Positions 20,208 to 64,000 of a DNA stretch of 64,000 nucleotides are shown piece by piece. The stretch spans positions 1,724 to 65,723 of the forward strand of contig JAZSDC010000018.1 of assembly GCA_045530935.1 (NCBI GenBank). Reading direction: 5' to 3'. A model generated the notes under the pieces. The model was not told where the DNA came from. It did not search any database and saw only the letters and a list, made by a program, of their open reading frames with translations. The DNA is from Candidatus Enterousia sp. (GTDB taxonomy: Bacteria; Pseudomonadota; Alphaproteobacteria; Rs-D84). A program made the translations under genes and the position numbers. How positions within the stretch are numbered: position 1 is the first letter of the stretch; each line of letters begins with the position of its first letter.

Positions 20208-20213
20208 AACTAT

Positions 20214-35678: not shown

Positions 35679-36665
35679 ATGAAACGTACTTTATTTAGAA
35701 TACTTGCATTCCCAATGCCAACACGCAGACTAAGGAATTTTATACGCAGACTGGGTGGCGATAAAAAAATAAATATTCCTACAGATATAATTGTAAAAAA
35801 CATTTTAAACGGTTATTTTGATTTATCAAAAACACCCCCTGCTTATGGCTTTCTAAAATATATACAAGCAGCAAATTTAAAATTACTAAAAGCCTTCGAT
35901 ACATTTGCAACAAACAACAAAATTCAATACTTTATGATTGGTGGGGCAATAGTCGGAAAAATAAGACATGATGCATGCATACCATGGGATGATGACATTG
36001 ATATTGGAATGGATGGTAACAACTATGAAAAATTTATAGCTGCAATAAGAAAAATTATTCCCAATCAGCATTTCTATATATACTTTTCCAGTAATGTTTG
36101 TAAAATTATACATACAGAAACCAACTCTTTTATAGATATACTTAGGTATGATTTACACCAAACACCACATTGCTACAGTGAAATTGGTGAAAAAATAATT
36201 ATAAAATCACAAAATAAGTTTATTCATAAAGTACAAAATAGACGTTTTCTTAGCTTTGATATTACAAACGATATGTCAAAAGATGAAATATGCGTCAAAT
36301 ATAATGCTGTAAAAAAAGACTTGGATGAAATAAGAAAATTACAGAAAAAATATTTTAAACCATGTGGTGGATGTCAAACGATTGTTCCGTTGCACGCAGA
36401 CTGTAAACCAGGCGAGTTTTATAGCCAGGATACAATATATCCAATAAGGAAACTAGAATTTAATGGTTATACCCTGCCATTCCCGAACGATATGGAACTG
36501 TATGCTGCAAAATGTTGGGGCGATATATGGAATTTTCCTGCAGATATGTTCAGGACACATGCACTAACAAAAAATAAAACGCCGCAAAAATTGTTAAACC
36601 TTAGAAAATTTTTATCTAAATCTGACGATGTTATTTATGCAGATTTTTCTAACAATAAAGGATGA
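35679..36665 (+). CDS. LicD-family phosphotransferase (phosphocholine or polyol-phosphate transfer to surface glycans)
   Basis: MIGGAIVGKIRHDACIPWDDDIDIGM matches the LicD GG..LGA.RH.G.IPWDDD.D signature. Clearly lower GC, and uses AGA/AGG Arg codons. Confidence 0.75.
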   Translation: MKRTLFRILAFPMPTRRLRNFIRRLGGDKKINIPTDIIVKNILNGYFDLSKTPPAYGFLKYIQAANLKLLKAFDTFATNNKIQYFMIGGAIVGKIRHDACIPWDDDIDIGMDGNNYEKFIAAIRKIIPNQHFYIYFSSNVCKIIHTETNSFIDILRYDLHQTPHCYSEIGEKIIIKSQNKFIHKVQNRRFLSFDITNDMSKDEICVKYNAVKKDLDEIRKLQKKYFKPCGGCQTIVPLHADCKPGEFYSQDTIYPIRKLEFNGYTLPFPNDMELYAAKCWGDIWNFPADMFRTHALTKNKTPQKLLNLRKFLSKSDDVIYADFSNNKG

Positions 36666-37087
36666 TTAAAATGAAGATTGGTGTTATTTGTGGTTCTTTC
36701 GATTTGATTCATAATGGACATCTGAATCTAATATCGCGCGCAATAAAACGATGCGATATGTTGATAGTCGGTGTTAATAGCGATGGACACATAATAAAAA
36801 ATAAAAAACACCCACCGGTGTTGTCGCAAAGTATAAGGTTAGAAATTATGAAATCTTTAAAATATGTAACCCAGGCATACATAATTGATTCGGGGATAGA
36901 GCTGGTAAAAAACTTATACGCACTTGGGATAAAAGTTGATGAATATTATCGTGGCGACGATATGTATAACACGCCACAACAAATTGCAGAGAATCAACAA
37001 TTGGAACAACTGGGAATAAAACCAATTTATTTTAAATACACAAAAAATATATCATCTACAAAAATAAGAAACTCGTTACCAAAATAA
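36662..37087 (+). CDS. cytidylyltransferase-family protein (TagD / CTP-transferase-like)
   Basis: GVICGSFDLIHNGHLNLISRA (HxGH nucleotidyltransferase motif), 141 aa, ATGA overlap with the licD-like gene. Confidence 0.75.
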   Translation: MIKMKIGVICGSFDLIHNGHLNLISRAIKRCDMLIVGVNSDGHIIKNKKHPPVLSQSIRLEIMKSLKYVTQAYIIDSGIELVKNLYALGIKVDEYYRGDDMYNTPQQIAENQQLEQLGIKPIYFKYTKNISSTKIRNSLPK

Positions 37088-37845: not shown

Positions 37846-38529
37846 TTATCTTGCAGGGCTTAATCTTATTTCAACGCGTCTATTTGTCAAACGACCAATG
37901 TTATCTTGGGCGGCAATTGGGCGTTTTGCACCACGTCCAACAATGAACATGCGTGTTGTATTTATTCCTTGTTCAGACAGATATACAGCAACACGTTGGG
38001 CCATATCTAAGGACAGTGCATTTGCAGCATTCTTGTCACGCATTGAATCTGTGTATCCTGCGATTTCAATAAATGTTGCATTATATCTCTTTAGTATGCT
38101 TGTAATAGTTTTTAGTGTATCTGCGCCTGTTTTTGATATATCTGCAACATTTAATTCCATAATGGCATCACGGACCAAAATAACAACAACGTCTGTCCCC
38201 GCGCGTTGTACAGAAATCCCAGGTTTGCGTAACGCATCATATAAATCATATTCCAGTTGTGCCATATACTGTGTCGCGATAATGTTATCGTTTGTTGCCT
38301 TGTCGCCATATTCTAGTGTGTCTGGTGTATCAGATTCGGCGTTAACTAATTTGCCACCCGCCCCCAAATACACAGGGCGCTTTGCGATGCGTGATAATTC
38401 TGTCATGTCTGTAAAGCTGGCGCCGTTAAGATAGCGGGGCCATGTGTGCCGGGCAGGGCTGTGATATTCTGTGCACGCAGATATTGCGCATATTACAGGA
38501 ATTAAAAATAATCGTTTGTTAACTTTCAT
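37846..38529 (-). CDS. OmpA-domain lipoprotein
   Basis: Lipobox CAISAC. C-terminal GYTDSMRDKNAANALSLDMAQRVAVYL..NRRVEIRLSP. Confidence 0.8.
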   Translation of the reverse strand: MKVNKRLFLIPVICAISACTEYHSPARHTWPRYLNGASFTDMTELSRIAKRPVYLGAGGKLVNAESDTPDTLEYGDKATNDNIIATQYMAQLEYDLYDALRKPGISVQRAGTDVVVILVRDAIMELNVADISKTGADTLKTITSILKRYNATFIEIAGYTDSMRDKNAANALSLDMAQRVAVYLSEQGINTTRMFIVGRGAKRPIAAQDNIGRLTNRRVEIRLSPAR

Positions 38530-38533
38530 TCAT

Positions 38534-38992
38534 TTATTCGACGATAAACGATACTTGGTTTGTTGATGAATCGAAACAGTTGTTTGTGGATGTGGTTTCA
38601 AAACCGTTAACCAACATATTATTTGCCCATTTGGGTAATGTTGCAGAAAAATAATTACAATCCCCAGATGACAAATTTACTAAATTAATTGAAAAGCTTT
38701 TTCCGTCAACGCTTGGGGCTATGGACCATCCGTCGCCACCAATCGGTGCTTGATTATTTTTTAGTGCGCCCGCCTTTATAAGATAATCAATCGAAAGCCC
38801 TTCGTAAGAACCATAATTTTCCATCAACAACTTAGTATTTTCAACCAATTGATTTAATTCTGCGTTTGCAATGGTTCTGATTTGGTTTTTTCGTACAGTG
38901 TCATATATTTTAACAGAAGATACCGTCATAACCGAAACAATGGCCATAAAACCAATCAGTTCTATCAAAGAACGTCCGGATTGTTCTCTCAT
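38534..38992 (-). CDS. type IV pilin-like protein (152 aa) with prepilin-type N-terminus
   Basis: MREQSG|RSLIELIGFMAIVSVMTVSS has Gly at -1, Glu at +5 and a hydrophobic helix. C-terminal Cys pair 28 residues apart (C..NNC), like a pilin D-region. Its ATG overlaps the dnaX TAA (TAATG). The 207-aa track ORF extension into dnaX is rejected. Confidence 0.6.
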   Translation of the reverse strand: MREQSGRSLIELIGFMAIVSVMTVSSVKIYDTVRKNQIRTIANAELNQLVENTKLLMENYGSYEGLSIDYLIKAGALKNNQAPIGGDGWSIAPSVDGKSFSINLVNLSSGDCNYFSATLPKWANNMLVNGFETTSTNNCFDSSTNQVSFIVE

Positions 38993-40566
38993 TATTTTAC
39001 TCCTATAATTTCTGCGTTTTCGAACAAATTCATTGCGCTGGCAACCAATGGGTCCGCTGCCAGCTCTTCTTGTTTCTGTTCGCTGATTGTGTTTACGTGC
39101 GCTGATTCTGTTGCGCGTTCCAGTATCCACTGTTTTCCTGTTTTGTCCATCAACCAAACAGATAGTTTTTGTACGAAATCGCCATCGCCTTTGCGATCAA
39201 AAAATCTAATTTTACCATCTTCAAAATTAGCGATTTCAATATTGCTGCTGAAATAAGAATACAGCAAAATTTCCTTGGTTTCTTGCAATGCGACGCCCAA
39301 ATCATTTGCGTTTGCAAAAGAGTATATTTTTTTCTGTTGAGTGGTGGTTGTTTGTCCTGTTGGGACAGTCTGCGCCATTCGGTCTGCAAAAATATTTTTT
39401 ACATCCTGGGTTCTTTTTGCGGATTCTTGTTGTTTGATTATCTCTGGTACGGATGGCATGTCTGCGATATGCATCATTCTGACGACTAACATGTCAAAAC
39501 ATTGTTTTTGATTTCCAGCAGCTTGCATTTCTGGAACAGCAGCAACCATAACCTGCCAAATTCGGGACAGAGTGTTTAGTGGTGTTCGTGAATTAATCAT
39601 ATGTATTTGGTCGCGTTGGTCTGCGGTATATGGCGAATTCAGAACATCGCCAGCGTGCAAGGCGGGGTGCATGCGTGTTGCCCAGTGTGTCCATTCCATC
39701 ATATCGGTTAACAACATTGATAAATCTGCGCCATTACTATAGATTTCATCGACCTTGTCCAATGCTGCAACAGTGTTGCCGGATAATAAAGTTTTCATAA
39801 AGTCAACAACGACACCACGGTCTGCACGTTTTAACATGTCCAGCACAGCGGCTTCATCAACATGACCGCCTGTTTGTGCGATTGCCTGGTCCAGCAACGA
39901 TAATCCATCGCGAACAGAGCCATCTGCCGCACGGGCCAGTAATTCATTTGCTCCATCGCTTAGCTCTATTTTTTCTTGTTCTGCAATCCACGCAAAATGT
40001 TTTTTTAGCGTTTCCACAGGAACCCGCACCAAATCAAAACGTTGACAGCGCGATAATATAGTCACTGGTACTTTCCTGATTTCGGTTGTTGCTAGTATAA
40101 AAATTACGTGTGCAGGGGGTTCTTCCAGTGTTTTAAGCAACGCATTAAATGCAGAAGTAGATAGCATATGAACTTCGTCGATTATATAAACACGATATCT
40201 GCCATTTGTTGGTCTGTATTGTGCGCCATCAAGTATTTCGCGCATGTTATCAACCCCCGTATGCGATGCGGCGTCGATTTCCATTACATCAATATGTTGT
40301 CCGGCGGCAATTGCGCGACAGTTTTCGCATGTTCCGCATGGTGTTGCGGTTGCGCCATCTGATGACAGACAGTTTAGCGCCTTGGCCAGAATTCGTGCCG
40401 TACTGGTTTTTCCTGTTCCGCGAATTCCTGTGAAGATATAGGCGTGCGCAATACGTGATGTGTTAATTGCTGTTGTTAATGTTTTTACCAGAACATCTTG
40501 TCCGATAAGGGTTTTAAAATCTTGACTGCGATATTTGCGGGCAAGTACCGTATAATTACTTTCCAT
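38992..40566 (-). CDS. dnaX: DNA polymerase III subunit gamma/tau
   Basis: LARKYRSQDF, Walker A GIRGTGKTSTARI, the Zn module C..C..C..C, IDEVHMLS and SRCQRF. AAGGAAG RBS before the ATG at 40566 (the track start is 40608). Confidence 0.95.
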   Translation of the reverse strand: MESNYTVLARKYRSQDFKTLIGQDVLVKTLTTAINTSRIAHAYIFTGIRGTGKTSTARILAKALNCLSSDGATATPCGTCENCRAIAAGQHIDVMEIDAASHTGVDNMREILDGAQYRPTNGRYRVYIIDEVHMLSTSAFNALLKTLEEPPAHVIFILATTEIRKVPVTILSRCQRFDLVRVPVETLKKHFAWIAEQEKIELSDGANELLARAADGSVRDGLSLLDQAIAQTGGHVDEAAVLDMLKRADRGVVVDFMKTLLSGNTVAALDKVDEIYSNGADLSMLLTDMMEWTHWATRMHPALHAGDVLNSPYTADQRDQIHMINSRTPLNTLSRIWQVMVAAVPEMQAAGNQKQCFDMLVVRMMHIADMPSVPEIIKQQESAKRTQDVKNIFADRMAQTVPTGQTTTTQQKKIYSFANANDLGVALQETKEILLYSYFSSNIEIANFEDGKIRFFDRKGDGDFVQKLSVWLMDKTGKQWILERATESAHVNTISEQKQEELAADPLVASAMNLFENAEIIGVK

Positions 40567-40650
40567 GCTGTCGACTTCCTTTTGGGATTTAGCATAGCAA
40601 AACAACATGAAATTTCAACAAATAAATGCGCCAATCGGCGCATTTTTAAC

Positions 40651-40965
40651 CTAGTTTAAATTTGTTATAAAGTCCGGAAAACCAGGCTCTTCATCATCGC
40701 TATTTTCCTGGTTTTCTTTTGCTTGTTCTTCGGCCATTGCTTTTTCTGCGGCGGCTTTTTCTTTTGGGTCGCGTGTTGAATCTATTTTGCCTTGTTCTGC
40801 GTTTACCATGCGACCATAATGTTCCGCAGTCTGTAACAAGCGTTCGCGATCAATTTCGTCTGCTGTTTGACGTGCCTGGTCAATATATTGTTTTCTTTTC
40901 TGGCGCCATTTATGACAGCGCTGAATCATCTGTCCGACATTGGATTGATTTTTTTTGTTTTGCAT
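40651..40965 (-). CDS. small basic/acidic protein, DUF4167-like
   Basis: ..KQYIDQARQTADEIDRERLLQTAEHYGRM.. resembles the alphaproteobacterial DUF4167 pattern (..AENY.QHAEHY.R). From memory only. Confidence 0.45.
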   Translation of the reverse strand: MQNKKNQSNVGQMIQRCHKWRQKRKQYIDQARQTADEIDRERLLQTAEHYGRMVNAEQGKIDSTRDPKEKAAAEKAMAEEQAKENQENSDDEEPGFPDFITNLN

Positions 40966-41070
40966 ATCTTTTCTTTTTTAAATCAGGAAATAAACCCATG
41001 TAACAACATCTAAAAGTATTATAGGTTGTTACGCTTAACATAATAAATTCTAAATCATCTTAAAACTGAT

Positions 41071-41099
41071 TGCAATAATTTTTTTCTGTTGCTATCCTG
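41071..41099 (+). promoter_or_regulatory. sigma70-like promoter for the prepilin-like operon
   Basis: TTGCAA, 17-nt spacer, TATCCT. Lies 25 nt upstream of the GGAGGGGG RBS. Confidence 0.4.
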
Positions 41100-41123
41100 G
41101 CGTTTGTAGGAGGGGGCACAATC

Positions 41124-42479
41124 TTGAACCAGGAACGTGGAAACTTTTTATTTCAATCCTTGCTGGCGCTGGGGTTGGTTTTTGCGTTTATTCCATTTTT
41201 GTCGCGCCAATTACTAGAACGCAATAATGATACGCGTATGCATTCTGTCGTTCATCAGGTTGATGTTGCACAAACTGCTGCGCGTATATTTTTGCGTGAA
41301 AATTCAAAAAATATAGCATATGACAAAACTGTTGTTACAGGTGATGATTTTTCTGATTTGTTGGAACCATATGGTTTGCCGTTGGGTTTTGTGCCACGTA
41401 CTGCCTTGGGGCAGGATATTATTTTGGTAATTGATAAAACGCCTGAAAGTGTGTCTGCCTATCTGGATTTAAAGGGGGGGCGTCTAAATCGTCTGCAGCG
41501 TGCAGAATTGGTTCGGCGTATTGGTTTTTATGCATCTGATGTTGAAGATGGCGTTCGTGTTGGCGTTGATTTAGCCGAAGTTTATTCTGATATTGTTCGT
41601 CGTAATGAACCAGACTTGGATAACAGCGGTTTTTTATCGGACTTGGATATGGGTGGTTTTGTGTTAGATGACGTTGGTAATATGTATGCATCAGATGGCA
41701 GTTTTGAAACTGTGCATGTCGGAACGTTGGGTGTGTTGGGTTATGAATCTGGTCGCAAGGTTCGCAACGATATAAAAAACATGTCTGCAACAAAAACAAT
41801 TTTTCAAAGTCGCGATGGCGAAACGGCGTTGACCTTGACGCGTGGGACGCTGTTTGTTGGTGACATGTCTGCAAAAACGTTGTCGATGTTTGGTAATGGG
41901 GGTAATTTGCTTGCAGAAACCGTGTCGGTATATGATTTTTCAATGACTGCGGGTCGTACTGGTTTTACAGGGCCTTCTGATTGGAATATTCGTGGCAGTG
42001 TGGTTACCGACAAGATTTCTTTTAGTGTTGAACGCTTGGACATTTCGTCATATTTAAACACGACGCGTGGTCAAGATGTTTATATTGATGCCGAAGAATT
42101 AGAATACAGTTCAAAATCTGGGATAGAGGTTGGCACCCTGTATTCGTCCAACATAACATTGCGCGATCAAACGTCCAGTTCGTTAAGTGTGGGTGGGACA
42201 GGCGCGGTGATATTAGATATCAGACCAGCAGGGACAACGATGTTGCCAGATGCATTGGTGTCAGATATAGACAACCAGGATTTCTCGATAATTGCAAAAC
42301 CTAATTCAAACGATACAGATATCATAGACTGTGCCACCGTAATAAAAGATTTAGAAGGTGTTTATAATGACAATTCTTTATCACAGTATTTAATATGCCA
42401 ATATGTATTCTGGCAGAATATTGAAAAACGTATTGATATAAAACAATGTTTAATGGCGGGGCGTAATGATTGTATGTAA
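41124..42479 (+). CDS. large prepilin-like protein 1 (451 aa), PilV-like candidate
   Basis: TTG start after the AGGAGGGGG RBS. N-terminus MNQERG|NFLFQSLLALGLVFAFIPF. Central motif FLSDLDMGGFVLDDV. Periodic S/T/V/G-rich region. C-terminal Cys cluster. Confidence 0.55.
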   Translation: MNQERGNFLFQSLLALGLVFAFIPFLSRQLLERNNDTRMHSVVHQVDVAQTAARIFLRENSKNIAYDKTVVTGDDFSDLLEPYGLPLGFVPRTALGQDIILVIDKTPESVSAYLDLKGGRLNRLQRAELVRRIGFYASDVEDGVRVGVDLAEVYSDIVRRNEPDLDNSGFLSDLDMGGFVLDDVGNMYASDGSFETVHVGTLGVLGYESGRKVRNDIKNMSATKTIFQSRDGETALTLTRGTLFVGDMSAKTLSMFGNGGNLLAETVSVYDFSMTAGRTGFTGPSDWNIRGSVVTDKISFSVERLDISSYLNTTRGQDVYIDAEELEYSSKSGIEVGTLYSSNITLRDQTSSSLSVGGTGAVILDIRPAGTTMLPDALVSDIDNQDFSIIAKPNSNDTDIIDCATVIKDLEGVYNDNSLSQYLICQYVFWQNIEKRIDIKQCLMAGRNDCM

Positions 42480-43677
42480 AAGAAATTTTTGCAATACGGA
42501 CAGTTATGGTGCCAGTGTTCTAGAGGTTTTATTGTCGTTGGCGATTATTGCGCTGGCGACGCCATTTATTTATGCACAAATATCTAAAACAAACAGTATG
42601 TTGCGCGATATATCTGTTGCGAAAAAGATTATGTCCAGTCGTGATACAGTACTAAATTTTGTTCGTATGAACCAAGATAAATGGCCGAATGTTGCCCAGA
42701 TACAAATGGATTCGGAAGATTTAAATTTGATTTCCCCAGACGCAGAAGCTGGATTTATAGATAAGTATTTGGTTAACGGTGCATCTATTACAGATGTTTA
42801 TTTGGCGTTTAGTGCAGCGGACAATGATATAAAGTCGCATCAGGTTGCGCGTCACATTGGTGATGCTGCTGCGATTGTTGGGCCTGATGGCATTGCTTAT
42901 GGTAAAACATGGGCTGTGGCGGCGCCTGAATTTATTTCTGGTGATTTGATATATCGTGTATCACGCGATGTGTCTGGTGAAGACACGTCAAAGTTTTTAC
43001 ATCGTGCTACAACCGGTCAAGACGGGTTAAACGTTATGTTTCGTGATTTGAACATGGCGCGACATAATGTGTATGGTGTATCCAGTGTATCTGCAAAAGA
43101 TACGCGTGTAAAAAATATAAATACATCGTTTATAAAATCTGAAGACGTGGTTGCGGATAACATCTATTTTTCATCAGGTGTCAACATGGATGGCGAAGGG
43201 GTATTTGTTGACAATATCCGTGTTACAGGCGATATAAATGGGTTTCGTAATATTGCTGCAAAAACTGTTAACGGCACAGGGTATACAACATCTGGACACA
43301 TAATAACAGACCGTGCAACGGTATCTAAGTCTGTAAATGTTGCAAAAGATTTTGTTTTAAAATCTGATTCTGGTCGCACAATAAGCGGTTTTACCGGCGT
43401 TTCTGCCAGTTCTGTTATGGTGCCATATGTCTTTGCCGAAGAAATGATTTTTTACGATAATTTTGGCTTGACTGTATCTGGTGAATTGTTGATGTCAACG
43501 ACTGTTCCATTAAAGCTGGGGGGGTGGGGTTTTCCATCTGTTCGCCCACCAGAGTTTAAAAAGTTAACATTATCGCGTGCTAAAATTCCAGATGCTCCAA
43601 ATGCAAATGAGTTCAAAGAATTGTTGCGTGATGATTGGCAAATAAATACAAGTGGGAACATACTGGTGGCGGAATAA
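42466..43677 (+). CDS. large prepilin-like protein 2 (403 aa), PilV-like candidate
   Basis: ..DSYG|ASVLEVLLSLAIIALATPF has Gly at -1 and Glu at +5. LIYRV..LNVMFRDLNMARHNVYGV motif. 14-nt overlap with the upstream gene. Confidence 0.6.
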   Translation: MIVCKRNFCNTDSYGASVLEVLLSLAIIALATPFIYAQISKTNSMLRDISVAKKIMSSRDTVLNFVRMNQDKWPNVAQIQMDSEDLNLISPDAEAGFIDKYLVNGASITDVYLAFSAADNDIKSHQVARHIGDAAAIVGPDGIAYGKTWAVAAPEFISGDLIYRVSRDVSGEDTSKFLHRATTGQDGLNVMFRDLNMARHNVYGVSSVSAKDTRVKNINTSFIKSEDVVADNIYFSSGVNMDGEGVFVDNIRVTGDINGFRNIAAKTVNGTGYTTSGHIITDRATVSKSVNVAKDFVLKSDSGRTISGFTGVSASSVMVPYVFAEEMIFYDNFGLTVSGELLMSTTVPLKLGGWGFPSVRPPEFKKLTLSRAKIPDAPNANEFKELLRDDWQINTSGNILVAE

Positions 43678-44991
43678 ATGTTTAATGTAAAAAGACATCT
43701 TGAAAGTAAAAATGAATCAGGCGGTTCTATGCTAATAGAACTATTGCTTAGTATTGCGTTGGCGGTGATTGTTATTCCGTTTATTTTCAAGTATCAACAA
43801 AACGCAATAATACGCGCACAAAATATTGCGTTGACCAACGAAATGACCGAGATTCAGGTTGCACTAGAACGTTACATTGTTGCGAATCGCCAAGATTTAT
43901 TGAAAACAGTTGGACGTCATATTGTGCGTTTAGATATTGAAGACCTGATTGAATTCGGGATTCCTGAATATATCATTGACAATTCAGATAAATACCAACT
44001 GCGTATATTAAAATCTGCAGATTCAATTGGGGCTGCGACATTACAGGGTGTTATTGTTCGTGATTCTGCAGATATTGCCCCGATGCGTACGCGTGAAATT
44101 GTTAATTTGTCTGGTGGTGATATGGGGTTCATAGACGGTATGCGTGCGCATGGTACATTTGGTACATGGCATGCAGATACGGTTGATATTGGGGTTGATG
44201 TATCAGATGGTTTGGTTGGTACAACATCGGTTAAGCGTGATAATGCTGTCTATTTATGGCGATTGCCGTCTGAAAATGTGGCAGATTCAACAATGATGTC
44301 TGCGCTGAATCTTGGCGGACATGATATTGTAAACATATCGGTGTTGAATTCGGATTCGCTTAATTTTTCGGGCGATATGTCTGCGCTAAAGATTGTTGCA
44401 GACAAGATTGTTTTTGAAAATCGCACAACGCTGGACAACAGCTTTAATACAGCCAGTGCAACTGTATCTGGCGCCTTGTCATCTGATGGACGTGGGTTAG
44501 AGATAGAAGATACGCTGACTTTTACAGACGTTGCCAAACTGTCCGCGCTGGATGTTCAAGATTTATGGGTCTCAAATTTAACCTTGTCTGGGGTGTCGAT
44601 TGAAGCAGAAGACGACTTTGCCATTTTAAAAATAAACCAAGCATTAGACATGACGTCTGGTCGTGTCGAAGCGATGTTTGTTACGGTTGGTTTTGCTGGG
44701 TCTATGACATCGCGTCTTGTTGTTCATGACAAGATTGCAGACGCAACCAAATCAGAATATTTTTGGGATTTTAATTCTGGTGTTGCGAATTTTTTTGATG
44801 CAACATTTGTTGAATTAAATCGTATGGCAACATTGGCGCATCGTAAGTATGGCATCGCTTCGACTGTGTCGTCCCAGGTTTTTGGCGCGGTTTCCGCCAA
44901 CAAGAACGCAACGGTTGGTGATTACATGAATGCCATACGTGAAATCCAGACGCGGGTGCGTGGGAAATATCGTTTGTTGAATTTAGAATAA
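43678..44991 (+). CDS. large prepilin-like protein 3 (437 aa), PilV-like candidate
   Basis: ..NESGG|SMLIELLLSIALAVIVIPF has Gly at -1 and Glu at +5. YLWRLP..STMMSALNLGGHDIVNI motif. Starts immediately after the upstream stop. Confidence 0.6.
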   Translation: MFNVKRHLESKNESGGSMLIELLLSIALAVIVIPFIFKYQQNAIIRAQNIALTNEMTEIQVALERYIVANRQDLLKTVGRHIVRLDIEDLIEFGIPEYIIDNSDKYQLRILKSADSIGAATLQGVIVRDSADIAPMRTREIVNLSGGDMGFIDGMRAHGTFGTWHADTVDIGVDVSDGLVGTTSVKRDNAVYLWRLPSENVADSTMMSALNLGGHDIVNISVLNSDSLNFSGDMSALKIVADKIVFENRTTLDNSFNTASATVSGALSSDGRGLEIEDTLTFTDVAKLSALDVQDLWVSNLTLSGVSIEAEDDFAILKINQALDMTSGRVEAMFVTVGFAGSMTSRLVVHDKIADATKSEYFWDFNSGVANFFDATFVELNRMATLAHRKYGIASTVSSQVFGAVSANKNATVGDYMNAIREIQTRVRGKYRLLNLE

Positions 44992-45011
44992 TTTATGGTA
45001 TAGGTAAATAT

Positions 45012-45539
45012 ATGAAAACAAAATGTGATTTTTGCAAGACTGAATATAATACCGATGGTGCATTACGTGGTAATGTACAGTGTGCGGTTTGTGGTTACAC
45101 GTGGTCGATTGCGGAACCTGTGCGTAAAAATTCGTGGTTGGTATTTTTTGCGGCGCTTTGTGCATTGTTGTCTGCGATTGTGTTTACGGTTGTTGTTATT
45201 ACGCATCACCAGGCAAAGAACGTTGTTCATGGTCCATTGGTTACAAATGTTTCGAAAATAGATATTGTTCCAGATGAAAACGGCACGATGCGTTATGTTG
45301 TTCGTGGAACGATATCGAATGTGTCTGCTGACATTTATGGTATTCCTGATTTAGTGATTATATCAACTGATGATGCGGGCAATGTTCTGGCGCGTCAGAA
45401 GTTTATGCCGTCTGCAACGCTGTTGGATGCGGGTGCGACGGTTGAATTTAACCATATGTTGTCGCCCCAGCCATTGGGGGTAAAAAAGATATCTGCACGT
45501 TTGGCAGACCTTGAACCCATACCCCAGGATAAGAAATGA
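45012..45539 (+). CDS. zinc-ribbon (MJ0042-type) / single-TM / DUF3426-like protein
   Basis: N-terminal C.FC...(17)..C..C zinc ribbon, TM WLVFFAALCALLSAIVFTVVVI, and a beta-rich C-domain. Confidence 0.6.
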   Translation: MKTKCDFCKTEYNTDGALRGNVQCAVCGYTWSIAEPVRKNSWLVFFAALCALLSAIVFTVVVITHHQAKNVVHGPLVTNVSKIDIVPDENGTMRYVVRGTISNVSADIYGIPDLVIISTDDAGNVLARQKFMPSATLLDAGATVEFNHMLSPQPLGVKKISARLADLEPIPQDKK

Positions 45540-45994
45540 AGAAAATAATTTTTATTTTATTTGGCTTGTTTTTTTCTGTGCCTGCAATGTGTGCTGCTGC
45601 GGAACAGCCGCGGGTCAGCATTTTTTCCACCAGTACAGATTGGCAGGGGGTTACAGGTCTGACTTTAAACGAATACAATGGGAAATTTATCTCGGATAAA
45701 AAGCTGGTTGGGCGTGGTTTAGTCTTGTATTATCTGGATGGATTTCCATGTTATGGTTTGGGCTATGGTGTTCGTGTATGGGTTGGTCCGGACGGACAGA
45801 CGGACAATGATTTGCACATTGCATGTGTTGCCCCCCCGCGAGAGGTTAATTTTGCATATCGTAACGCCACGCGTGATGCGGACCAGGCGACGACTACTGG
45901 TATTTTGACGTGTCCGGTTCGTGGTTCTGGTCGGGAATTGACAATTGATTTATCTGATTGTATTGTTGGTCCAGATTGGGATGATTATAAGTAG
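45536..45994 (+). CDS. small secreted protein (152 aa), hypothetical
   Basis: Signal peptide MKKIIFILFGLFFSVPAMCAAAE. ATGA overlap with the upstream gene. 4 Cys in the mature part. Confidence 0.55.
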   Translation: MKKIIFILFGLFFSVPAMCAAAEQPRVSIFSTSTDWQGVTGLTLNEYNGKFISDKKLVGRGLVLYYLDGFPCYGLGYGVRVWVGPDGQTDNDLHIACVAPPREVNFAYRNATRDADQATTTGILTCPVRGSGRELTIDLSDCIVGPDWDDYK

Positions 45995-46007
45995 AGGTTT
46001 GTCTATT

Positions 46008-46967
46008 ATGTGTGAAACGCGTGAATTTACTGTGAATGAAACGGACGATATTGTGCGTCTGGACAAATATTTATCAGCCCAGATGCCTGAATTTTCGCGC
46101 AGCGAGATTCAGCGTTTTCACGTAACGCGTGCCGATGGTACGTCTCCAAAGTTTTCTGAAAAGATACGTCCTGGGGATTGTTTTTTTGTTCAGATTCCCA
46201 TTCTTGCAACAGATGTTGCGACAGAAAACATTTCTTCTGATTTTGATTTAGACATTTTATTCGAAGACGATGATATAATCGTAATTGATAAACCGCGCGG
46301 TGTTGTGATGTATCCGTCTGCAGGGAACAAGACCGGCACATTGGTTCAAAATATATTATCGCACACGCATTTGTCTGCGCTGGGGGGTGATACGCGTCCT
46401 GGGGTTGTTCATCGTTTGGACAAGGATACCAGTGGTGTCATGGTATTTGCGAAATCCGACGCTGCATTTCGTGGATTGGTAAAAATCTTTTCGGAACATA
46501 ATTTAACGCGAAAATACACTGCTTTTGTTTGGGGGATTCCAACCTGGGAAGAGGCTGAGATTACCGGAAACATCGCACGTTCGTCCAGAAATCGTCAAAA
46601 GATGACAATGGTAAAGTCTGGTGGAAAGCCGTCGCATACCGATGTTGCGGTTATTGATGCCTGGCCACGTGCTGGTGTATCCCAGATGAAGTGTACACTG
46701 TTTACGGGTCGCACACATCAGATACGCGTTCATTTATCGTCGCATGGTTTTCCGGTGTTGTGTGATCCGCTTTATGGTCGTGGTGCTGTGAAACTAGGGT
46801 CTGTCAAGAACGCAGATTTGCTGGAATTTTTAAAAACGCACAATGGTCAGATGTTACATGCGTCTGTCCTAGAATTTGTTCATCCTGTTACTGGTCGTGA
46901 AATGCGTTTCAAATCGCGTTTGCCAGATGATATGTCAGAATTAAAATATTTGCTGTCAGAAATCTAA
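46008..46967 (+). CDS. rluD: 23S rRNA pseudouridine synthase, RluA family (RluD/RluC-like) with S4 domain
   Basis: S4-like RLDKYLS...SRSEIQRF and catalytic HRLDKDTSGVMVFAKS. I prefer the ATG at 46008 (the track start is 45945). Confidence 0.85.
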   Translation: MCETREFTVNETDDIVRLDKYLSAQMPEFSRSEIQRFHVTRADGTSPKFSEKIRPGDCFFVQIPILATDVATENISSDFDLDILFEDDDIIVIDKPRGVVMYPSAGNKTGTLVQNILSHTHLSALGGDTRPGVVHRLDKDTSGVMVFAKSDAAFRGLVKIFSEHNLTRKYTAFVWGIPTWEEAEITGNIARSSRNRQKMTMVKSGGKPSHTDVAVIDAWPRAGVSQMKCTLFTGRTHQIRVHLSSHGFPVLCDPLYGRGAVKLGSVKNADLLEFLKTHNGQMLHASVLEFVHPVTGREMRFKSRLPDDMSELKYLLSEI

Positions 46968-47041: not shown

Positions 47042-50000
47042 ATGTCTTTTCTCAAAAACACGATTAGTTTAATGGCGTTATTTAGTGTGATTCCTGCGGC
47101 TTTTGCAGTTACCGCGCGTCCTGGCGTGATGCCCAACAGCAAGACGATTGGATACAACACCGTAACAGGTACTGCGCGACGCATCCCAACGGTGAGTCAG
47201 TTTGTCACATCCGCGACAACGAATGTTACGACCAACACGGGTTCGTCGTTGTTGACTGATAAAGACTGTATTGACTCTTATACTTCATGTATTAAATCTG
47301 CGGATGCCTGTGGTGCTGCGTTCGAAGAATGTACAACTGATATTTTATTTCATGCCAAAATGCCATCTTGCATAAGTGTTTTGGGTCAATGTTCTGCTGC
47401 TGGTATCAACAGCTTATTTGGAACGTCAAATACATCTGCGTTAAAGAGTGGTACAACAAATTCATATGGTGAAATCACAGATTATACATATCCAACTGCG
47501 GCCAGTGTTCTGGGTCAGATGATATCTGCTGCGGCAATTGAAAATATGTACGACACATCCAGCTGTATTCGTCGCTATACAACATGTTTAAAGAAAGAAA
47601 ACGTTTGTGGCCAGGATTTTGAACTGTGTACATCGAATCCAGAATTTAAAAAGCAGGCTGTTTTGTGTGATTCAACATTGGCGCGTTGTGCGTCCGATGG
47701 CAAGGAAGAATTATTTGGTAATGGTGGCGCGACGTCTTCTACGTTGCCTGCCACGGACAGTCGTATTGGCGAAATGATTAGTGAAGGTGCTGCGTTGGCG
47801 GCGGTAAACGCGGTTTCTACATGCTACAAGATTACAGATCAATGTATCATGAATGCATGTACTGCAAATCCATATAAGTGCCATGAAAGCTCGTCCGAGG
47901 CACTGACCGCATTAATTGATGCGATAAACAATGGTACATCTATCACAGATGCGGTTGACGAATATGGTGATGATATTGTTAACGGTGCAGATGTTCATTC
48001 ACATATCAAAAATTCATGCGAGGCCACAATTGGTTCGAATAAATACTGTTATGCGACATTTATTGGTGATGGGGAATTACCAACCAATGCCCAGTTGCGC
48101 GATGAAGATAACCAGGCTGAAATTTTTGAAGAAGCCTTTGCGACGCGTATGAATTCAGGTATGCGCGCCAAGATATCTGACCTGGTAAAAGATTTTGACA
48201 CTCGCGCCAAAGAAAAATGCGTTGAAACAATCAAGACATGTGCAATGCGCACCTGTGGTGGTGGTTCTGGGGCGGCGTGCTATGCGTTGGTATATGGTAA
48301 CGGCACCAGTGGCAGTATCAATGGCGACGCAACATACGATGCAATTCAGAATGGGTGTTCTGCGATTGTAAATACAGACATGTATTGTAAATATGCGGCA
48401 CAAAACCAAGAAAATTATGGGTTATACGAATATTCATTTGTAAAATCCGACGCCTTTACAACATTGTTTCCGAAAAAAACGGATAACAGTGGTGACCCAA
48501 TTGGGGTTGTTGCAACACTGAATGCATCTTTATCAACCAGCTATAATGACGCGGCAATTGCCCAGATGAAAAAACGTTGTCAAAATCTGGCGACCAGCTG
48601 TGTAAAAAATGTATGTGGCACAGATTATCAAAATTGTTATCGCAACCGTTTGGATATATATTCTACCTTAACAAACAGTGGTAATGCAGAATTTGATAAT
48701 TCGATGAACCATGTTGGTGGTGTCTTAGATTATACAATTATTTTAGGTATGTGTGCAAATACGGTTAAAAATGCTGATGCATGCGCAGAACATATCAAGA
48801 TAACCCAGGCGAAACAACTTGCGGCTGAAAATCAAACACATAATGTATGGGGTGCGGACGCTGCGCGTAACGAATGGTTGGATGCAGGCAGTATTAATAT
48901 TACCGTTACTGGCAAACACAAAGTAACCGATAAAAACGGTAATGAATTGTGTTATGACGATTGTAACAGTCGTGGTCTCTGTGATACTGCAACCAATTTG
49001 GCAGATTGTGGTATGCACGATGAACCAATCACAATTGATTACGATACATACGCGATTGAGCAGGCAACAGACAGTCTGTTCAAAGAATTGATTTATGATT
49101 TGGAAATCGAAGCCCAAGCAACATATAACGCAAAATTAACCAAACAACAGAACGAATGTTTGGCAATGAATAAAGGTGGTGTTTTGGGTGCCCAAGATAC
49201 AGGCAGTGCATATATGTGGGCAAAATTAAAAAGCGGCAAGGTTCCAGAAGATTACACTATTACGGGATTGGATGGCGCACAACTGGTCCCCAGCAAAGAA
49301 CTGTACGGTTCATTTTGTCGTGTTCGCGTAACATTGCAATCGGATGACAAAGCTATACAAGACTACCTAAAGGACAAAGAATGGAATAAAAGATACTTTG
49401 CGATTGGCGATCCGATTATATGCGGTTCATGGATTCCAACAGAAGATTTGGAAGAATTGGCAGCCAAGGCTGGTAATAAAGCAAAGGAAACCCGTAAAGA
49501 GCGTTTTGGTGATATGAAGGTATGGGGCACAGTTCTTGGAGCGCTGGGATTTGGCGGTGCCGGTGCGGTTATTGGTGACCAGATAGAGAAAGGAAACCTT
49601 TTGAACAGTATGACAGGGCTTAAAAGCTATGATGAAAATGCCAAGAAACTGTGCAAGCAAAATGCAGAGCAGGCAATTGCAAATCTTAACACCAGTTCCG
49701 AGACGGCCGCAAGGTATGCAAGCGCAGCGAAGGAAAATGCTAAAAACGCAGGTGTTGATAGTGCTACAATAGCTGCAGTCAATATTAAAACAGAGTGTGA
49801 TAATGATGACGCCAAGGACGTTGACGCGCCAACTGATGCAGTGTATTTAGCGGGCAAGGTAGCTGAAGTATGGAATGCCTGTCGTGGACTGCAAACGTCT
49901 AACCTTGGTAGTAGTACAGACTGGCGCGATGATTCTGAATGCGGAAAAGAAGTGGCAGAAGCTGTAAGAAACAAAAATGGTTCTTGTGCAGACATGAAGA

Positions 50001-50422
50001 ATGCGCTTAATGGAATAAAAGGCAAATATCACCTATCATCGATAGATGTTGGAGCATGTGATGCCACATCAGCAAAAAGCGATTTACCAACTTTGATCAA
50101 AATTGAAGGGGCTTCTGGATGTGCCAAATCAAAAATTGACGCAGACCAAAAAGACGAATTAGAGGCGTTAAAGGCAGCATGTGATGGTGCCACGGGAAAG
50201 AAGAAATTTACCGGTGCAGCCATTGGTGGCACTGTGGGTGTTCTTGGTGGTGGTGGCTTGACATATCTTGCGATTGACAGCTATCAAAAACAACAGTTGA
50301 CCGCAGCTTATAGGGAGGCATATGATGAATTTATGCAAAGCGCAGGTTCGAAAATCCAATGCTTTGTTGGTTCAGATTCATATGGAACCTATGGCCAGGT
50401 AATCCCGACCAGCATGGAATAA
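47042..50422 (+). CDS. giant cysteine-repeat secreted/surface protein (1126 aa) with C-terminal glycine-zipper hydrophobic segments
   Basis: Signal peptide ..IPAAFA|VTA. Tandem ~95-aa repeat with 6 conserved Cys (residues ~76-170 and ~175-258). The recurring C-x5-6-C-x4-5-CG-x3-5-C module appears at least 5 times. GTVLGALGFGGAGAVIG and AAIGGTVGVLGGGGLTYLAI near the C-terminus. Confidence 0.7.
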   Translation: MSFLKNTISLMALFSVIPAAFAVTARPGVMPNSKTIGYNTVTGTARRIPTVSQFVTSATTNVTTNTGSSLLTDKDCIDSYTSCIKSADACGAAFEECTTDILFHAKMPSCISVLGQCSAAGINSLFGTSNTSALKSGTTNSYGEITDYTYPTAASVLGQMISAAAIENMYDTSSCIRRYTTCLKKENVCGQDFELCTSNPEFKKQAVLCDSTLARCASDGKEELFGNGGATSSTLPATDSRIGEMISEGAALAAVNAVSTCYKITDQCIMNACTANPYKCHESSSEALTALIDAINNGTSITDAVDEYGDDIVNGADVHSHIKNSCEATIGSNKYCYATFIGDGELPTNAQLRDEDNQAEIFEEAFATRMNSGMRAKISDLVKDFDTRAKEKCVETIKTCAMRTCGGGSGAACYALVYGNGTSGSINGDATYDAIQNGCSAIVNTDMYCKYAAQNQENYGLYEYSFVKSDAFTTLFPKKTDNSGDPIGVVATLNASLSTSYNDAAIAQMKKRCQNLATSCVKNVCGTDYQNCYRNRLDIYSTLTNSGNAEFDNSMNHVGGVLDYTIILGMCANTVKNADACAEHIKITQAKQLAAENQTHNVWGADAARNEWLDAGSINITVTGKHKVTDKNGNELCYDDCNSRGLCDTATNLADCGMHDEPITIDYDTYAIEQATDSLFKELIYDLEIEAQATYNAKLTKQQNECLAMNKGGVLGAQDTGSAYMWAKLKSGKVPEDYTITGLDGAQLVPSKELYGSFCRVRVTLQSDDKAIQDYLKDKEWNKRYFAIGDPIICGSWIPTEDLEELAAKAGNKAKETRKERFGDMKVWGTVLGALGFGGAGAVIGDQIEKGNLLNSMTGLKSYDENAKKLCKQNAEQAIANLNTSSETAARYASAAKENAKNAGVDSATIAAVNIKTECDNDDAKDVDAPTDAVYLAGKVAEVWNACRGLQTSNLGSSTDWRDDSECGKEVAEAVRNKNGSCADMKNALNGIKGKYHLSSIDVGACDATSAKSDLPTLIKIEGASGCAKSKIDADQKDELEALKAACDGATGKKKFTGAAIGGTVGVLGGGGLTYLAIDSYQKQQLTAAYREAYDEFMQSAGSKIQCFVGSDSYGTYGQVIPTSME

Positions 50423-50456: not shown

Positions 50457-50535
50457 TTTTTAGTTGTAAAATAATTTTTCCACTTGCACTGTATTCTTAA
50501 ATTATTCTATGATTATATCAGGAAGGAAAGGAATC

Positions 50536-51807
50536 ATGCGTTTTTCTACAATCAGTTTATTATCGGTGTTCGTCGTATTTCCTGCAATTGCATCTGGTCA
50601 ATTGCCGGTGGTAAATATCGCGTCTGGCGGGGTTTCCGCACGCGCAGCATTTGGCGAACCGTTGCCAACAAAAAACGCGTCTGTGGTCAAAAAAACAACC
50701 CCAACGCGCACAACGCGTGTCGTAACGCGCCCCATTCATACAGAATCTGATGTTGGACAAACAATTGTTGCATCGAATGATGTTTTAAGTCCACGCCGCC
50801 CCAGTAATGATTTATGGGCAAAATCTGACTATGCATTGCGCATGCCAACGCCAAATGAATTTTCTGTGATGCGTTCCGATGCCATATTACCAGAAGAAAG
50901 TCTGGATACATTTGCGCCAACCGTCGCCCAGGTTGCACCTGTGGCACCTGTTACGCCAAATGTTGTGGGGGCAGAACGTGGGGCGCTGGATATGCAAATC
51001 GCGCGCCTGAACCAATTACAAAAACGTGCCGATGACAGTGTGCGTCAAACATCAAAACGTGTTATTGCGGCGCCTGTTACAACGCCTGATGTGGCGCCAT
51101 ATGAATCTGAACCTGTGCGTGTTGCGTCCGCCACACCCACGCAGCAGGATAATGTGTCGTTGCATCGAATGGTTGTGCCAATGGATACGCCTGATGTCGT
51201 AACCCGGGCCGTAAAGAAATCTGAATCTCCACGCATTGCCGCAGTACGTGATGATATGACTGGATTGTCCCCAACCGAATTACGCAAGGCATTCAGGAAA
51301 ACTTTCCTGTCCGAGAACAAGCATCTGTCAACATTTGCAATTGATTCACGTTTTGACACAATCAGCGATATGTCCGCATCTATCGAAGGTTTTACTGCAC
51401 AAAAAGACCTGTCAGAAAGCGGTGGAATTCGTCCGCTGGAAATCAAGATTAAATTCCGTAATGACGATTCTGCCTTGTCGCGTGCAAACTATACATTGTT
51501 AAGTGAATATGCTGCGATTGTTGTTGCAAAACCAACGCGTGCGATTCAGGTTGCAATTCCGCAATATATGACTGATTCAATCGATGGGCGAAAACTGGCG
51601 GCGCGCCGTTTGGCAATAATCGAACAGGTGCTGACCGATAATGGCGTTTCATTGCAACGAATTGTGCCCGTGCTGTCAAATCGTGATGAACCCAGTCTGG
51701 TATTGCGCATAATATCCAGTGATGAATACGAAATATTGACCCAGCGTTCTAATAACATGTTTGGTGATACTGTTTCCAAGAAAACTTATAAAAGTATGTC
51801 GTGGTAA
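50536..51807 (+). CDS. secreted protein (423 aa) with possible degenerate OmpA/MotB-like C-terminal domain
   Basis: GGAAAGGA RBS and signal peptide MRFSTISLLSVFVVFPAIASG. Pro/Thr/Val-rich middle. C-terminal ..SRANYTLLSEYAAIV....IQVA......D...GRKLAARRLAIIEQVL..GV...RI resembles OmpA_C loosely. Confidence 0.5.
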   Translation: MRFSTISLLSVFVVFPAIASGQLPVVNIASGGVSARAAFGEPLPTKNASVVKKTTPTRTTRVVTRPIHTESDVGQTIVASNDVLSPRRPSNDLWAKSDYALRMPTPNEFSVMRSDAILPEESLDTFAPTVAQVAPVAPVTPNVVGAERGALDMQIARLNQLQKRADDSVRQTSKRVIAAPVTTPDVAPYESEPVRVASATPTQQDNVSLHRMVVPMDTPDVVTRAVKKSESPRIAAVRDDMTGLSPTELRKAFRKTFLSENKHLSTFAIDSRFDTISDMSASIEGFTAQKDLSESGGIRPLEIKIKFRNDDSALSRANYTLLSEYAAIVVAKPTRAIQVAIPQYMTDSIDGRKLAARRLAIIEQVLTDNGVSLQRIVPVLSNRDEPSLVLRIISSDEYEILTQRSNNMFGDTVSKKTYKSMSW

Positions 51808-52523
51808 CACATTTATACAAATTTATTAATTTTCTGTTTCCGCCGGCATGTCCTTTGTGTGATATGCCGGTATCAATACATGGTGAACTGTGTGCAGCGT
51901 GTTGGGGTGCGATAAATTGGATTGATAATCCAAAATGTGCAAAATGCGGGTATCCTTTTCCTGCGGATATTGATTTAGGGGTGGCGCCATTGTGCCCAGT
52001 ATGTGCGTCTGGTAAATGTGAACTGGATTGGATTCGTTGTGCATGTGTTTATGATGACGCGTCGCGTGCCGCGATGTTACCGTTCAAGCACGGTGGGCGA
52101 ATAAAATACGCGTTATTTATGGCGCGCGCAATGATTTGGGCGTTGCGTGATATCTGTGTTGATGCAGATATAATTATGCCGGTGCCGTTGGCACGTCGTC
52201 GCTTGTTTCATCGTGGGTATAACCAGGCAACATTATTGTCGCGTCCAATTGCACGTGCATTGGGGATAAAGATTGATTTAGATTCTGTAACACGTGAATT
52301 CAGACCAGATATGGGACACAAAAATTCCAAAGAACGTATGGAAAATATACGTGGCGTGTTTTCTGTATCCAGGCCAGAAAATATTATTGGGCGTCGTATT
52401 TTATTGGTTGATGATGTTATGACAACAGGCGCAACATTTTCAGAGTTATATCGTGTATTAATGGAAGCGGGGGCACAGGCTGTTTATGGCGTAACGTTTT
52501 GTCGTGTCGTTCGCGCAATCTAG
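51801..52523 (+). CDS. comF: ComF-family phosphoribosyltransferase-like protein
   Basis: N-terminal double CxxC zinc fingers (CPLCD..CAAC, CAKCG..CPVC) and PRTase motif ILLVDDVMTTGATF. GTG start overlaps the upstream stop. Confidence 0.8.
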   Translation: MVTHLYKFINFLFPPACPLCDMPVSIHGELCAACWGAINWIDNPKCAKCGYPFPADIDLGVAPLCPVCASGKCELDWIRCACVYDDASRAAMLPFKHGGRIKYALFMARAMIWALRDICVDADIIMPVPLARRRLFHRGYNQATLLSRPIARALGIKIDLDSVTREFRPDMGHKNSKERMENIRGVFSVSRPENIIGRRILLVDDVMTTGATFSELYRVLMEAGAQAVYGVTFCRVVRAI

Positions 52524-56586: not shown

Positions 56587-56614
56587 AAAACGCCCATTTG
56601 TGGGCGTTTTTTTT
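56586..56614. terminator. bidirectional terminator
   Basis: ACGCCCA-TTTG-TGGGCGT flanked by A and T runs. Confidence 0.7.
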
Positions 56615-60112: not shown

Positions 60113-60456
60113 AAGCGGGCTTTCAAGTTGAGACAACAAAACAAAAAGAAACTCAACCCCTGAAATTCTGCGGTTTACGGAACAAACGATAGAAATCAGG
60201 TTCTTGTAGAACACGCAAACATTGTGAATAAAAGCAGCTCATCAAAAATTCAAGAAGGGATGTGCAGACAGTTGAATTTGGAATATCCAAACTTTGACTA
60301 AGTCAAAAGTGCATATCCTAGACAGGTAGTAGGTTTACATATTAAACCTCGTTAAAAAACTTGTCTTGCGAATAATTATATATGTAAAGACGAACTGATT
60401 ATTAAATAGTCAGCTTTTGTTTATATGCACGGGACTTACTTAACAGGTTTTTTTAG

Positions 60457-61960
<1,504 letters not shown>

Positions 61961-62040
61961 TAGAGAATACCGATAACACGATATCGGTCAATCCAAACGC
62001 GACTGTCTGAATATCTCTTTTTGAACGTGTATTAATCGCT

Positions 62041-62389: not shown

Positions 62390-64000
<1,611 letters not shown>

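Follow-up and report, generated by a model that had tools for sequence, protein, structure and literature searches.

Five tightly packed genes between dnaX and rluD

This report concerns a cluster of five protein-coding genes, here called A to E, in a 64,000-nucleotide (nt) stretch of DNA from Candidatus Enterousia, a gut alphaproteobacterium of the order Rs-D84 with a genome of <1 Mb. The whole stretch (NCBI GenBank assembly GCA_045530935.1, contig JAZSDC010000018.1, positions 1,724 to 65,723) is referred to as the window, and coordinates are counted from its first letter. The first three genes encode large proteins with prepilin-like N-termini. We propose, with a probability of about 0.7, that these are hard-wired minor pilins of the PilV type belonging to a chromosomal type IVb pilus, in which they would probably form a tip or initiation complex for contact with partner cells. 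The genes, taken from the table of open reading frames (ORFs), are as follows.

Gene A, 41124–42479, + strand: 451 amino acids (aa), TTG start; PilV-family prepilin-like protein
Gene B, 42466–43677, + strand: 403 aa; PilV-family prepilin-like protein
Gene C, 43678–44991, + strand: 437 aa; PilV-family prepilin-like protein
Gene D, 45012–45539, + strand: 175 aa; N-terminal 4-Cys zinc ribbon, one transmembrane (TM) segment and a periplasmic DUF3426/FxLYD-like domain
Gene E, 45536–45994, + strand: 152 aa; secreted or periplasmic protein with a Sec signal and four invariant Cys residues

A first-pass annotation, made from the sequence letters alone, had described a tightly packed block at 41071–45994, and the ORF table gives exactly the reading frames and junctions that it listed. 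Genes A and B overlap by 14 nt, B and C meet with a 0-nt gap, C and D are separated by 20 nt, and D and E share a 4-nt ATGA overlap. The annotation had also placed the block behind a single predicted promoter near position 41071. This site falls below the scan threshold, and the region has no excess of promoter-like sites over shuffled controls (26 versus 18.3 ± 4.6). The TTG start of gene A is preceded by a strong Shine–Dalgarno sequence, GGAGGGGG, and is consistent with the starts of its orthologues. The setting is chromosomal, among housekeeping genes, between dnaX and rluD. Database records for all five genes are ‘hypothetical’ or nameless, and none of the 815 database relatives of gene C carries a functional name.

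Conservation of the cluster

The first-pass annotation had suggested looking for the block in relatives. A scan that took one genome per GTDB species gave 73 loci, all from Candidatus Enterousia or from metagenome-assembled genomes of gut Alphaproteobacteria (ruminants, horses, chickens). The five genes are indeed syntenic, each being found in 73 to 76 of 76 loci: B and C occur in all 76, A in 73, and D and E, like rluD, in 75. The order s104-A-B-C-D-E-rluD is maintained across the lineage, and 73 species share one fixed gene structure. On the upstream side, dnaX, a 104-aa gene, a 152-aa pilin gene and an OmpA lipoprotein gene are present in 68–69 of the 76 loci, and the loci that lack them are contig-end cases. 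Identity within the block is 70–89%, with E as its most conserved gene.

The arrangement extends beyond close relatives. Another, more distant Rs-D84 genus keeps it in full, with proteins of 531, 455 and 653 aa followed by a zinc-ribbon protein, a protein of 160 aa, rluD and a protein of 1239 aa. In a distant lineage (locus L077), three tandem genes correspond one-to-one and in the same order to A, B and C by profile matches, and this locus carries neither D nor E. Given L077 and the second Rs-D84 genus, the A-B-C triad appears to be old.

Prepilin-type N-termini and a shared N-terminal region

The N-termini of A, B and C had been quoted correctly in the first-pass annotation, including a Pro-Phe pair at +18/+19 in all three. 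Gene A has a 6-aa leader (MNQERG↓NFLFQ; the arrow marks the predicted cleavage site) and carries Gln, not Glu, at +5. The leaders of B and C are 15 and 16 aa long and are followed by G↓ASVLE and G↓SMLIE, respectively. In these three proteins and in the 152-aa pilin, a hydrophobic segment of ~20 residues follows the Gly at −1. Among ~70 orthologues of each of the four proteins, this Gly is invariant in every sequence whose motif could be parsed; five sequences of B and five of C could not be. At +5, A has Gln in 69/69 sequences, and Glu is found throughout B (68/68), C (70/70) and the pilin (68/68). This conservation of the Gly(−1)/+5 pattern is far above chance.

The three proteins had also been called clearly related. 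This is true at the level of profiles but not of pairwise comparison, where BLASTP gives E values of 0.006 to 2e-5, mostly over the N-terminal helix. When orthologue alignments are compared with hhalign, B and C match at 98.1% (E 1e-13, 236 columns) and A and C at 95.5% (E 1e-8, 206 columns); the match between A and B is confined to 64 N-terminal columns. The region common to the three corresponds to the N-terminal ~230–250 residues. Within it the profiles place YLWRL...LNLGGHDI of C in register with FLHRA...LNMARHNV of B and IVRRN...LDMGGFVL of A. The Arg patch of B had been given as LIYRV, and the residues that align with YLWRL of C are FLHRA instead. The middle regions of A, B and C are rich in Ser, Thr, Gly and Asp, and past the shared region these proteins and PilV have no detectable similarity to one another. 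A, B and C thus appear to be diverged paralogues that have a common N-terminal region and unrelated C-terminal halves. Near its C-terminus, A has conserved Cys residues at 403, 425, 442 and 450.

Structure prediction with AlphaFold2 gave a model of C with a mean predicted local distance difference test score (pLDDT) of 72.7, based on a 33-sequence alignment. The model has a helix at 15–69 and a beta domain at 82–182, with pLDDT ~85–90 over residues 20–180. Region 190–350 is of low confidence, and confident helices follow at 378–433. The model of A has a mean pLDDT of 55.6, with a helix at 3–60, strands within 68–147 at pLDDT 70–85 and low confidence elsewhere. Both models have a predicted pilin-type architecture, a long alpha1 helix with a beta-sheet head. 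A Foldseek search of the A model against PDB returned only noise, as can be expected at a pLDDT of 55.6.

A profile search of PDB returned the N-terminal helices of pilins (geopilin) as its sole matches. Scans of A, B and C with Pfam and NCBIfam gave nothing usable, and N_methyl (PF07963) does not match A, B, C or the pilin of the window at E ≤ 1. When B and pilin orthologues are pooled, 13 of the 63 show weak N_methyl matches (best E 0.0015).

Remote homology to PilV

The first-pass annotation pointed to a resemblance to PilV and its Shufflon_N domain (PF04917), and this likeness proved to be real but remote. PF04917 does not match A, B or C of the window. However, two of 17 C orthologues match it over >200 residues, P0116 at 26.5 bits and P0066 at 23.4 bits, relative to a gathering threshold of 27.5 bits. 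When one of these C orthologues was compared by tblastn with 72,556 plasmids, 54 records matched; among the best 15 places listed, 14 are genes annotated pilV and one is a ‘hypothetical protein’ (E 0.02–1).

Profile comparison extends this result to all three genes. As reference PilV sequences we used one Leclercia and one Pseudomonas plasmid protein, each of which ends a complete pilL...pilV operon. With hhalign, C matches PilV at 91.7% (E 8e-7, 247 columns), A at 91.4% (E 9e-7, 201 columns) and B at 85.8% (E 5e-6, 122 columns). The PilV segment LYRFQV...LNKMHTSIDMGGNNLN (LYR...IDMGGNNLN) falls in register with the shared A/B/C motif that the first-pass annotation had pointed out. Relatives of ~1000 aa link the two families, with matches of 98% to C and 92% to PilV; their contigs are too short to give an informative gene context. 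No relevant Pfam domain was found in ten distant members of the family, one of which has a borderline, sub-threshold match to cyclophilin. On these scores, the N-terminal region of A, B and C is a remote homologue of PilV's constant region, and C is the closest of the three to PilV/Shufflon_N.

In PilV, a constant N-terminal part of ~345 aa precedes a short C-terminus, which is variable and serves to select the recipient cells (PMC9045228). A shared N-terminus joined to unrelated C-terminal halves suggests that A, B and C follow the same logic of constant and variable parts. A search of 40900–46100 for the inverted repeats of a shufflon (sfx) found only imperfect ones at chance level; the Rci gene was not specifically searched.

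The first-pass annotation had also named a resemblance to phage fibre tips, which would make A, B and C domesticated phage fibre or receptor-binding proteins. That suggestion and the Ser/Thr/Gly/Asp-rich middle regions are the only points in favor of this idea. A Foldseek search of the C model against BFVD gave a best E of 0.009 with a TM-score ≤0.19, and a scan of 2.9 million viral contigs (IMG/VR) gave no relative, so that a link to phage is unsupported by either resource. The genes also sit among housekeeping genes and are syntenic across the order. We regard a phage origin as extremely improbable.

A PilS-like pilin and an OmpA lipoprotein beside dnaX

Two further genes lie on the opposite strand.

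PilS-like major pilin candidate, 38534–38992, − strand: 152 aa, MREQSG↓RSLIE
OmpA-family peptidoglycan-binding lipoprotein, 37846–38529, − strand: PF00691 at 53.7 bits, lipobox ISAC

The pilin of the window scores 20.1 bits with PilS (PF08805), below the cut-off of 22. PF08805 matches are found in 18 of 63 pooled sequences (31 pilin and 32 B), with a best E of 1e-4, and hhalign aligns the pilin with plasmid PilS over its full length (84%, E 7e-6). The start codon of the pilin gene and the stop codon of dnaX share base 38992 (38534–40608, − strand), an arrangement kept in 68 of 76 loci. Translation of a surface-filament subunit therefore appears to be coupled to that of a replication gene. The OmpA lipoprotein gene is directly downstream of the pilin gene, forms a syntenic pair with it in 68 of 76 loci, and in one relative (L084) lies between the pilin and skp-pilO-pilP-pilQ-pilR. 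Its tie to the pilus is one of position only.

Genes D and E

D has the architecture of the zinc-ribbon, TM and DUF3426-like protein that had been described, with four invariant Cys residues, but no family score exceeds its threshold. The matches to Zn_ribbon_4, DUF3426 and FxLYD reach 18.2, 16.1 and 14.4 bits against thresholds of 30.3, 27.7 and 20.9, respectively. Residues C5, C8, C24 and C27 do not vary among 31 orthologues, a single TM segment lies at 39, and the L083 orthologue has a recorded Zn_ribbon_4 match. The position of D between C and E is constant. Gene E carries a Sec signal and four invariant Cys residues (C72, C97, C126 and C142), which agrees with its earlier description as a secreted 4-Cys protein. 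It has no match in Pfam, NCBIfam or PDB. Neither D nor E matches the R64 Pil proteins, and in comparisons with solved structures a match was found for the zinc ribbon of D only. The two proteins are part of the conserved unit in Rs-D84 and have no identifiable counterpart among known pilus systems.

Pilus machinery in related genomes

The first-pass annotation noted that no PilB/C/D/Q/T genes lie in the 64 kb. This holds for every ORF scanned and for tblastn searches with R64-type Pil proteins, and the families T2SSE, T2SSF, Secretin and A24 were likewise not found in the window. Its further proposal, that the machinery is encoded elsewhere, agrees with what relatives carry: a pilO-pilP-ATPase-platform module, which in one species is contiguous with the cluster.

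In tblastn searches of all loci with the R64-type Pil proteins, three loci showed a PilQ-like ATPase at their edge. This ATPase carries Walker A and CPYC (CxxC) motifs and scores 216 bits with GspE, 188 with PilB and 47 with VirB11 models. It occurs in at least 120 clusters and is 88–100% identical across the best 120 listed. Several of these clusters agree in the length of their longest contig with clusters of C or with loci that carry the block, as would fit identical contigs. The neighborhood of the ATPase is, in order, PAP_PilO (420 aa), a pilP_fam-like protein of 218 aa, the ATPase itself and a T2SSF platform protein. This pilO-P-Q-R order is the R64 order, as in plasmids L079 and L080. 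PAP_PilO scores 35.6 bits in L143 and 26.2 bits in L084, pilP_fam matches at E 5e-6, and T2SSE and T2SSF are above threshold in the module of the relatives.

In L084, pilO-P-Q-R directly follows dnaX-pilin-OmpA-skp and adjoins A-B-C. In other relatives it is found elsewhere, for example near VirB4 (L085, 1–1873), and the same four-gene module is present in 80 further metagenomic loci. One of these, locus L143, whose ATPase is 77% identical, also contains the C-terminal part of a Secretin-domain protein (3–692; PF00263, 54.4 bits), which lies 9 kb upstream of pilO and has a plasmid PilN as its best tblastn match. No tblastn or hhalign match to PilU, PilL, PilM or the PilT transglycosylase was found in the fetched loci.

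The ATPase score bears on a second interpretation, in which a short pseudopilus would serve DNA uptake (nucleotide scavenging) or export of E, and A, B and C would be priming pseudopilins, not adhesins. The best score of the ATPase is with the GspE model, and ComEC and a ComF-type protein are retained in a <1 Mb genome that is unable to make nucleotides. In addition, E is small, secreted, co-transcribed and very conserved, and the even conservation of A, B and C suits structural subunits better than adhesins. However, the accessory genes are specific to type IVb systems (PAP_PilO, pilP_fam) and are not GspL/M/C of the type II secretion system (T2SS). The closest relatives of A, B and C are PilV adhesins, and 400–450 aa with three distinct C-terminal domains exceed what priming needs. 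We consider the pseudopilus unlikely; the two interpretations do overlap.

A proposed pilus tip

The simplest account of the cluster is a pared-down type IVb pilus of the R64 type in which the function of PilV would be split over three co-expressed paralogues. This account draws on homology, conservation, synteny and the machinery present in relatives. A prepilin peptidase would cleave A, B and C after the conserved Gly. The three proteins would then prime assembly on a PilO-PilP-PilQ(ATPase)-PilR platform encoded elsewhere, and would end at the tip of a filament made of the PilS-like pilin (38534–38992).

As the three genes are translationally coupled, their products are probably made at similar levels, and they may form a 1:1:1 tip or initiation complex, for which the CofB and TcpB trimers serve as a guide. 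A would be the most distal subunit and a candidate cap, because it lacks Glu5, like the distal subunits of T2SS and type IVa tips. The three different C-terminal domains would act as adhesins, their ligands being surface structures of partner cells. For a bacterium that lives off others, partner-cell contact is the likely role.

Several results weigh against a PilV-type pilus tip. PF04917 matches none of 32 B orthologues, and the proteins of the window fall below every curated pilin family threshold. In a Foldseek search of the C model against PDB, nothing stood out from noise except a borderline match to the R64-type PilM (3eoi, E 0.048). A beta-helix in the C-terminal halves was not confirmed, as model confidence is low there. 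Conservation is uniform along each of A, B and C, unlike that of adhesins under diversifying selection, and the L077 counterpart of A has Glu5, which weakens a cap role for A. The pilOPQR module is known from relatives and not from the genome of the window, where the contig ends, and a secretin was seen in one relative only (L143). No A24 prepilin peptidase was found in the window, in ~1.5 Mb of sequence flanking A-E or in ~1 Mb flanking pilOPQR (highly redundant loci), by a search with tblastn and a TM-plus-GxGD[VI]K motif that covered all fetched loci, not whole genomes. Moreover, a genome survey that includes Rs-D84 reports type IV pilus genes for the unrelated family UBA9783 only and mentions none for Rs-D84 (PMC12306168).

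The peptidase result, the sub-threshold family scores and the survey would each fit the view that the N-termini are ordinary uncleaved signal anchors, and that A, B and C are bitopic inner-membrane or periplasmic relics of a decayed pilus system. Yet Gly−1 and Glu/Gln+5 are invariant in ~70 species and in a distant lineage, and the five genes are intact and syntenic despite strong genome reduction. The ATPase, platform, PilO and PilP are also intact and highly conserved. Given the invariant residues and the intact motor, we judge uncleaved anchors to be improbable and retain the PilV-type pilus tip as the preferred interpretation, which in essence agrees with the first-pass annotation.

A more elaborate version of this pilus can be envisioned. 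A hetero-trimeric PilV-type tip, with A as its cap and E docking in the manner of CofJ or TcpF, might operate, together with VirD4 and VirB4 of a type IV secretion system and with ComEC and ComF, as a device for recognizing partners, attaching to other gut cells and drawing resources from them. Such a device would be a proteobacterial counterpart of the pilus-dependent epibiosis of Patescibacteria. This scheme is tentative and rather unlikely as a whole, and within it the CofJ/TcpF-like role for E is speculation by analogy. Any part played by D would be equally conjectural.

The genomes of Rs-D84/Enterousia are 0.75–1.0 Mb in size and lack pathways for making amino acids, nucleotides and lipids; these bacteria probably rely on other cells, and a partner-dependent lifestyle has been proposed (PMC12306168). 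They have almost no biosynthesis and are widespread in the guts of ruminants, horses, chickens and humans (PMC12306168). That a genome of <1 Mb keeps ~5 kb for three PilV-like proteins, along with a pilin wired to dnaX and a conserved motor, points to a concrete and testable contact apparatus. The main value of the cluster lies in the clues it may hold to the lifestyle of Rs-D84 and to hetero-oligomeric type IVb tips.

Other genes in the window and in related loci

The window holds several further genes and features.

VirD4/TraG-type coupling protein, 10562–12802, − strand
ComEC, 23614–25524, − strand: Competence and DUF4131 domains
LicD-family gene (PF04991, 74.9 bits) overlapping a cytidylyltransferase gene (PF01467), 35679–37087, + strand: in a stretch of ~35% GC
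1126-aa Cys-rich protein with a signal peptide, 47042–50422, + strand: no family match; possible surface protein
Predicted secreted protein, 50509–51807, + strand: 432 aa
ComF-type protein, 51801–52523, + strand: double zinc ribbon and phosphoribosyltransferase
Predicted secreted protein, 56613–57959, − strand: 448 aa
Predicted secreted protein, 58081–59034, + strand: 317 aa
rRNA operon, 60456–64000, + strand, at the window end: 16S, tRNA-Ile and the start of 23S

Retention of ComEC and ComF in a <1 Mb genome suggests DNA uptake, perhaps for nucleotide scavenging. The VirD4/TraG protein of the window, together with VirB4 beside pilO-P-Q-R in a relative, suggests that the lineage also keeps a type IV secretion system. 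The LicD and cytidylyltransferase pair is found in none of ~155 related loci and adjoins skp, the site of pilO-P-Q-R in L084; the pair may be a module for phosphocholine-type surface decoration that was acquired recently. The 1126-aa protein follows rluD in 51 of 76 loci and is 1159–1239 aa long in other species. The three predicted secreted proteins have no Pfam match at E ≤ 1e-5.

Two observations come from flanks of related loci. In L077, genes for a multi-TM protein of 377 aa and an OmpA-domain protein of 361 aa lie ~7 kb from the triad (18015–20234, − strand). By eye the pair is MotA/MotB- or ExbB-like, and a giant protein of 3003 aa is encoded upstream. The left flanks of L017, L023, L038 and L043 (− strand) contain runs of three to four proteins of 370–480 aa with 5–7 TM segments, a few kb from OmpA-pilin, which may be VirB6-like paralogues.

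Comparison with known systems

Sets of minor pilin-like genes occur in several pilus and secretion systems. The bundle-forming pilus of enteropathogenic Escherichia coli, a type IVb pilus, has three small pilin-like proteins, BfpI, BfpJ and BfpK, encoded inside the bfp machinery operon. As proposed for A, B and C, three minor pilin-like genes serve one type IVb system; the Bfp proteins are not known to have PilV-type regions. The tandem minor (pseudo)pilins GspH-I-J-K of T2SS and FimU-PilV-W-X or PilHIJK of type IVa pili include distal subunits without Glu5 (GspK, PilX/PilK), a trait that A has as well. These tip proteins are mostly 130–330 aa long and belong to other families than A, B and C. 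The T2SS pseudopilins GspH-K were considered as a family for A, B and C and were rejected because the matches cover the N-terminal helix only (E>0.05; GspI, HpsC) and the accessory genes are type IVb-specific.

The PilV proteins, which are minor pilins and tip adhesins of R64, R721 and TP114 (IncI1/IncI2 thin pili) and of the PAPI-1 conjugative pilus, are closer in design. Like A, B and C, they have a prepilin N-terminus and a length of 400–450 aa, and a constant region with [YF]L[YWH]R ... [LI][DN][ML]GG[HN][DN][IL] precedes a stretch rich in Gly, Ser, Thr and Asn and a C-terminal part that is not the same in all variants. PilV systems also have a PilS major pilin and the pilO-P-Q-R genes, for which the Enterousia lineage offers a PilS-like candidate and the module of the relatives, respectively. 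The differences are also clear. PilV is encoded by one gene, with a 3′ end that a recombinase shuffles, whereas Enterousia has three separate full-length genes without sfx-like repeats. PilV closes a pilL-V operon on an I-complex plasmid or an integrative and conjugative element, whereas A, B and C are chromosomal, with no I-type transfer genes nearby. Leclercia PilV has Trp at +1 and Asp at +5, in contrast to Glu at +5 in B and C, and the similarity of A, B and C to the PilV family is at or below the Pfam threshold. If the relationship is correct, then the PilV adhesin family exists outside conjugative plasmids, and receptor diversity would be fixed here as three co-expressed paralogues instead of being made by a shufflon.

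For the tip itself, the large type IVb minor pilins CofB (CFA/III of enterotoxigenic E. coli), LngB (Longus) and TcpB (toxin-coregulated pilus, TCP) carry a pilin domain with extra C-terminal domains. A trimer of the CofB/TcpB type starts assembly at the tip and binds a small secreted protein from the same operon, CofJ or TcpF; both proteins are exported by their type IVb systems. TcpB is the large minor pilin of Vibrio cholerae TCP (PMC5207764). We use CofB, TcpB and LngB as a working model for a hetero-trimer of A, B and C and for E. The likeness is mechanistic only: neither CofB nor TcpB gave a sequence or fold match to A, B and C in the PDB profile search or in Foldseek against PDB. CofB, TcpB and LngB are each the product of one gene and form homotrimers, whereas Enterousia has three genes, and an A-B-C tip would therefore offer a natural hetero-trimeric contrast to the homotrimeric tips of CofB and TcpB.

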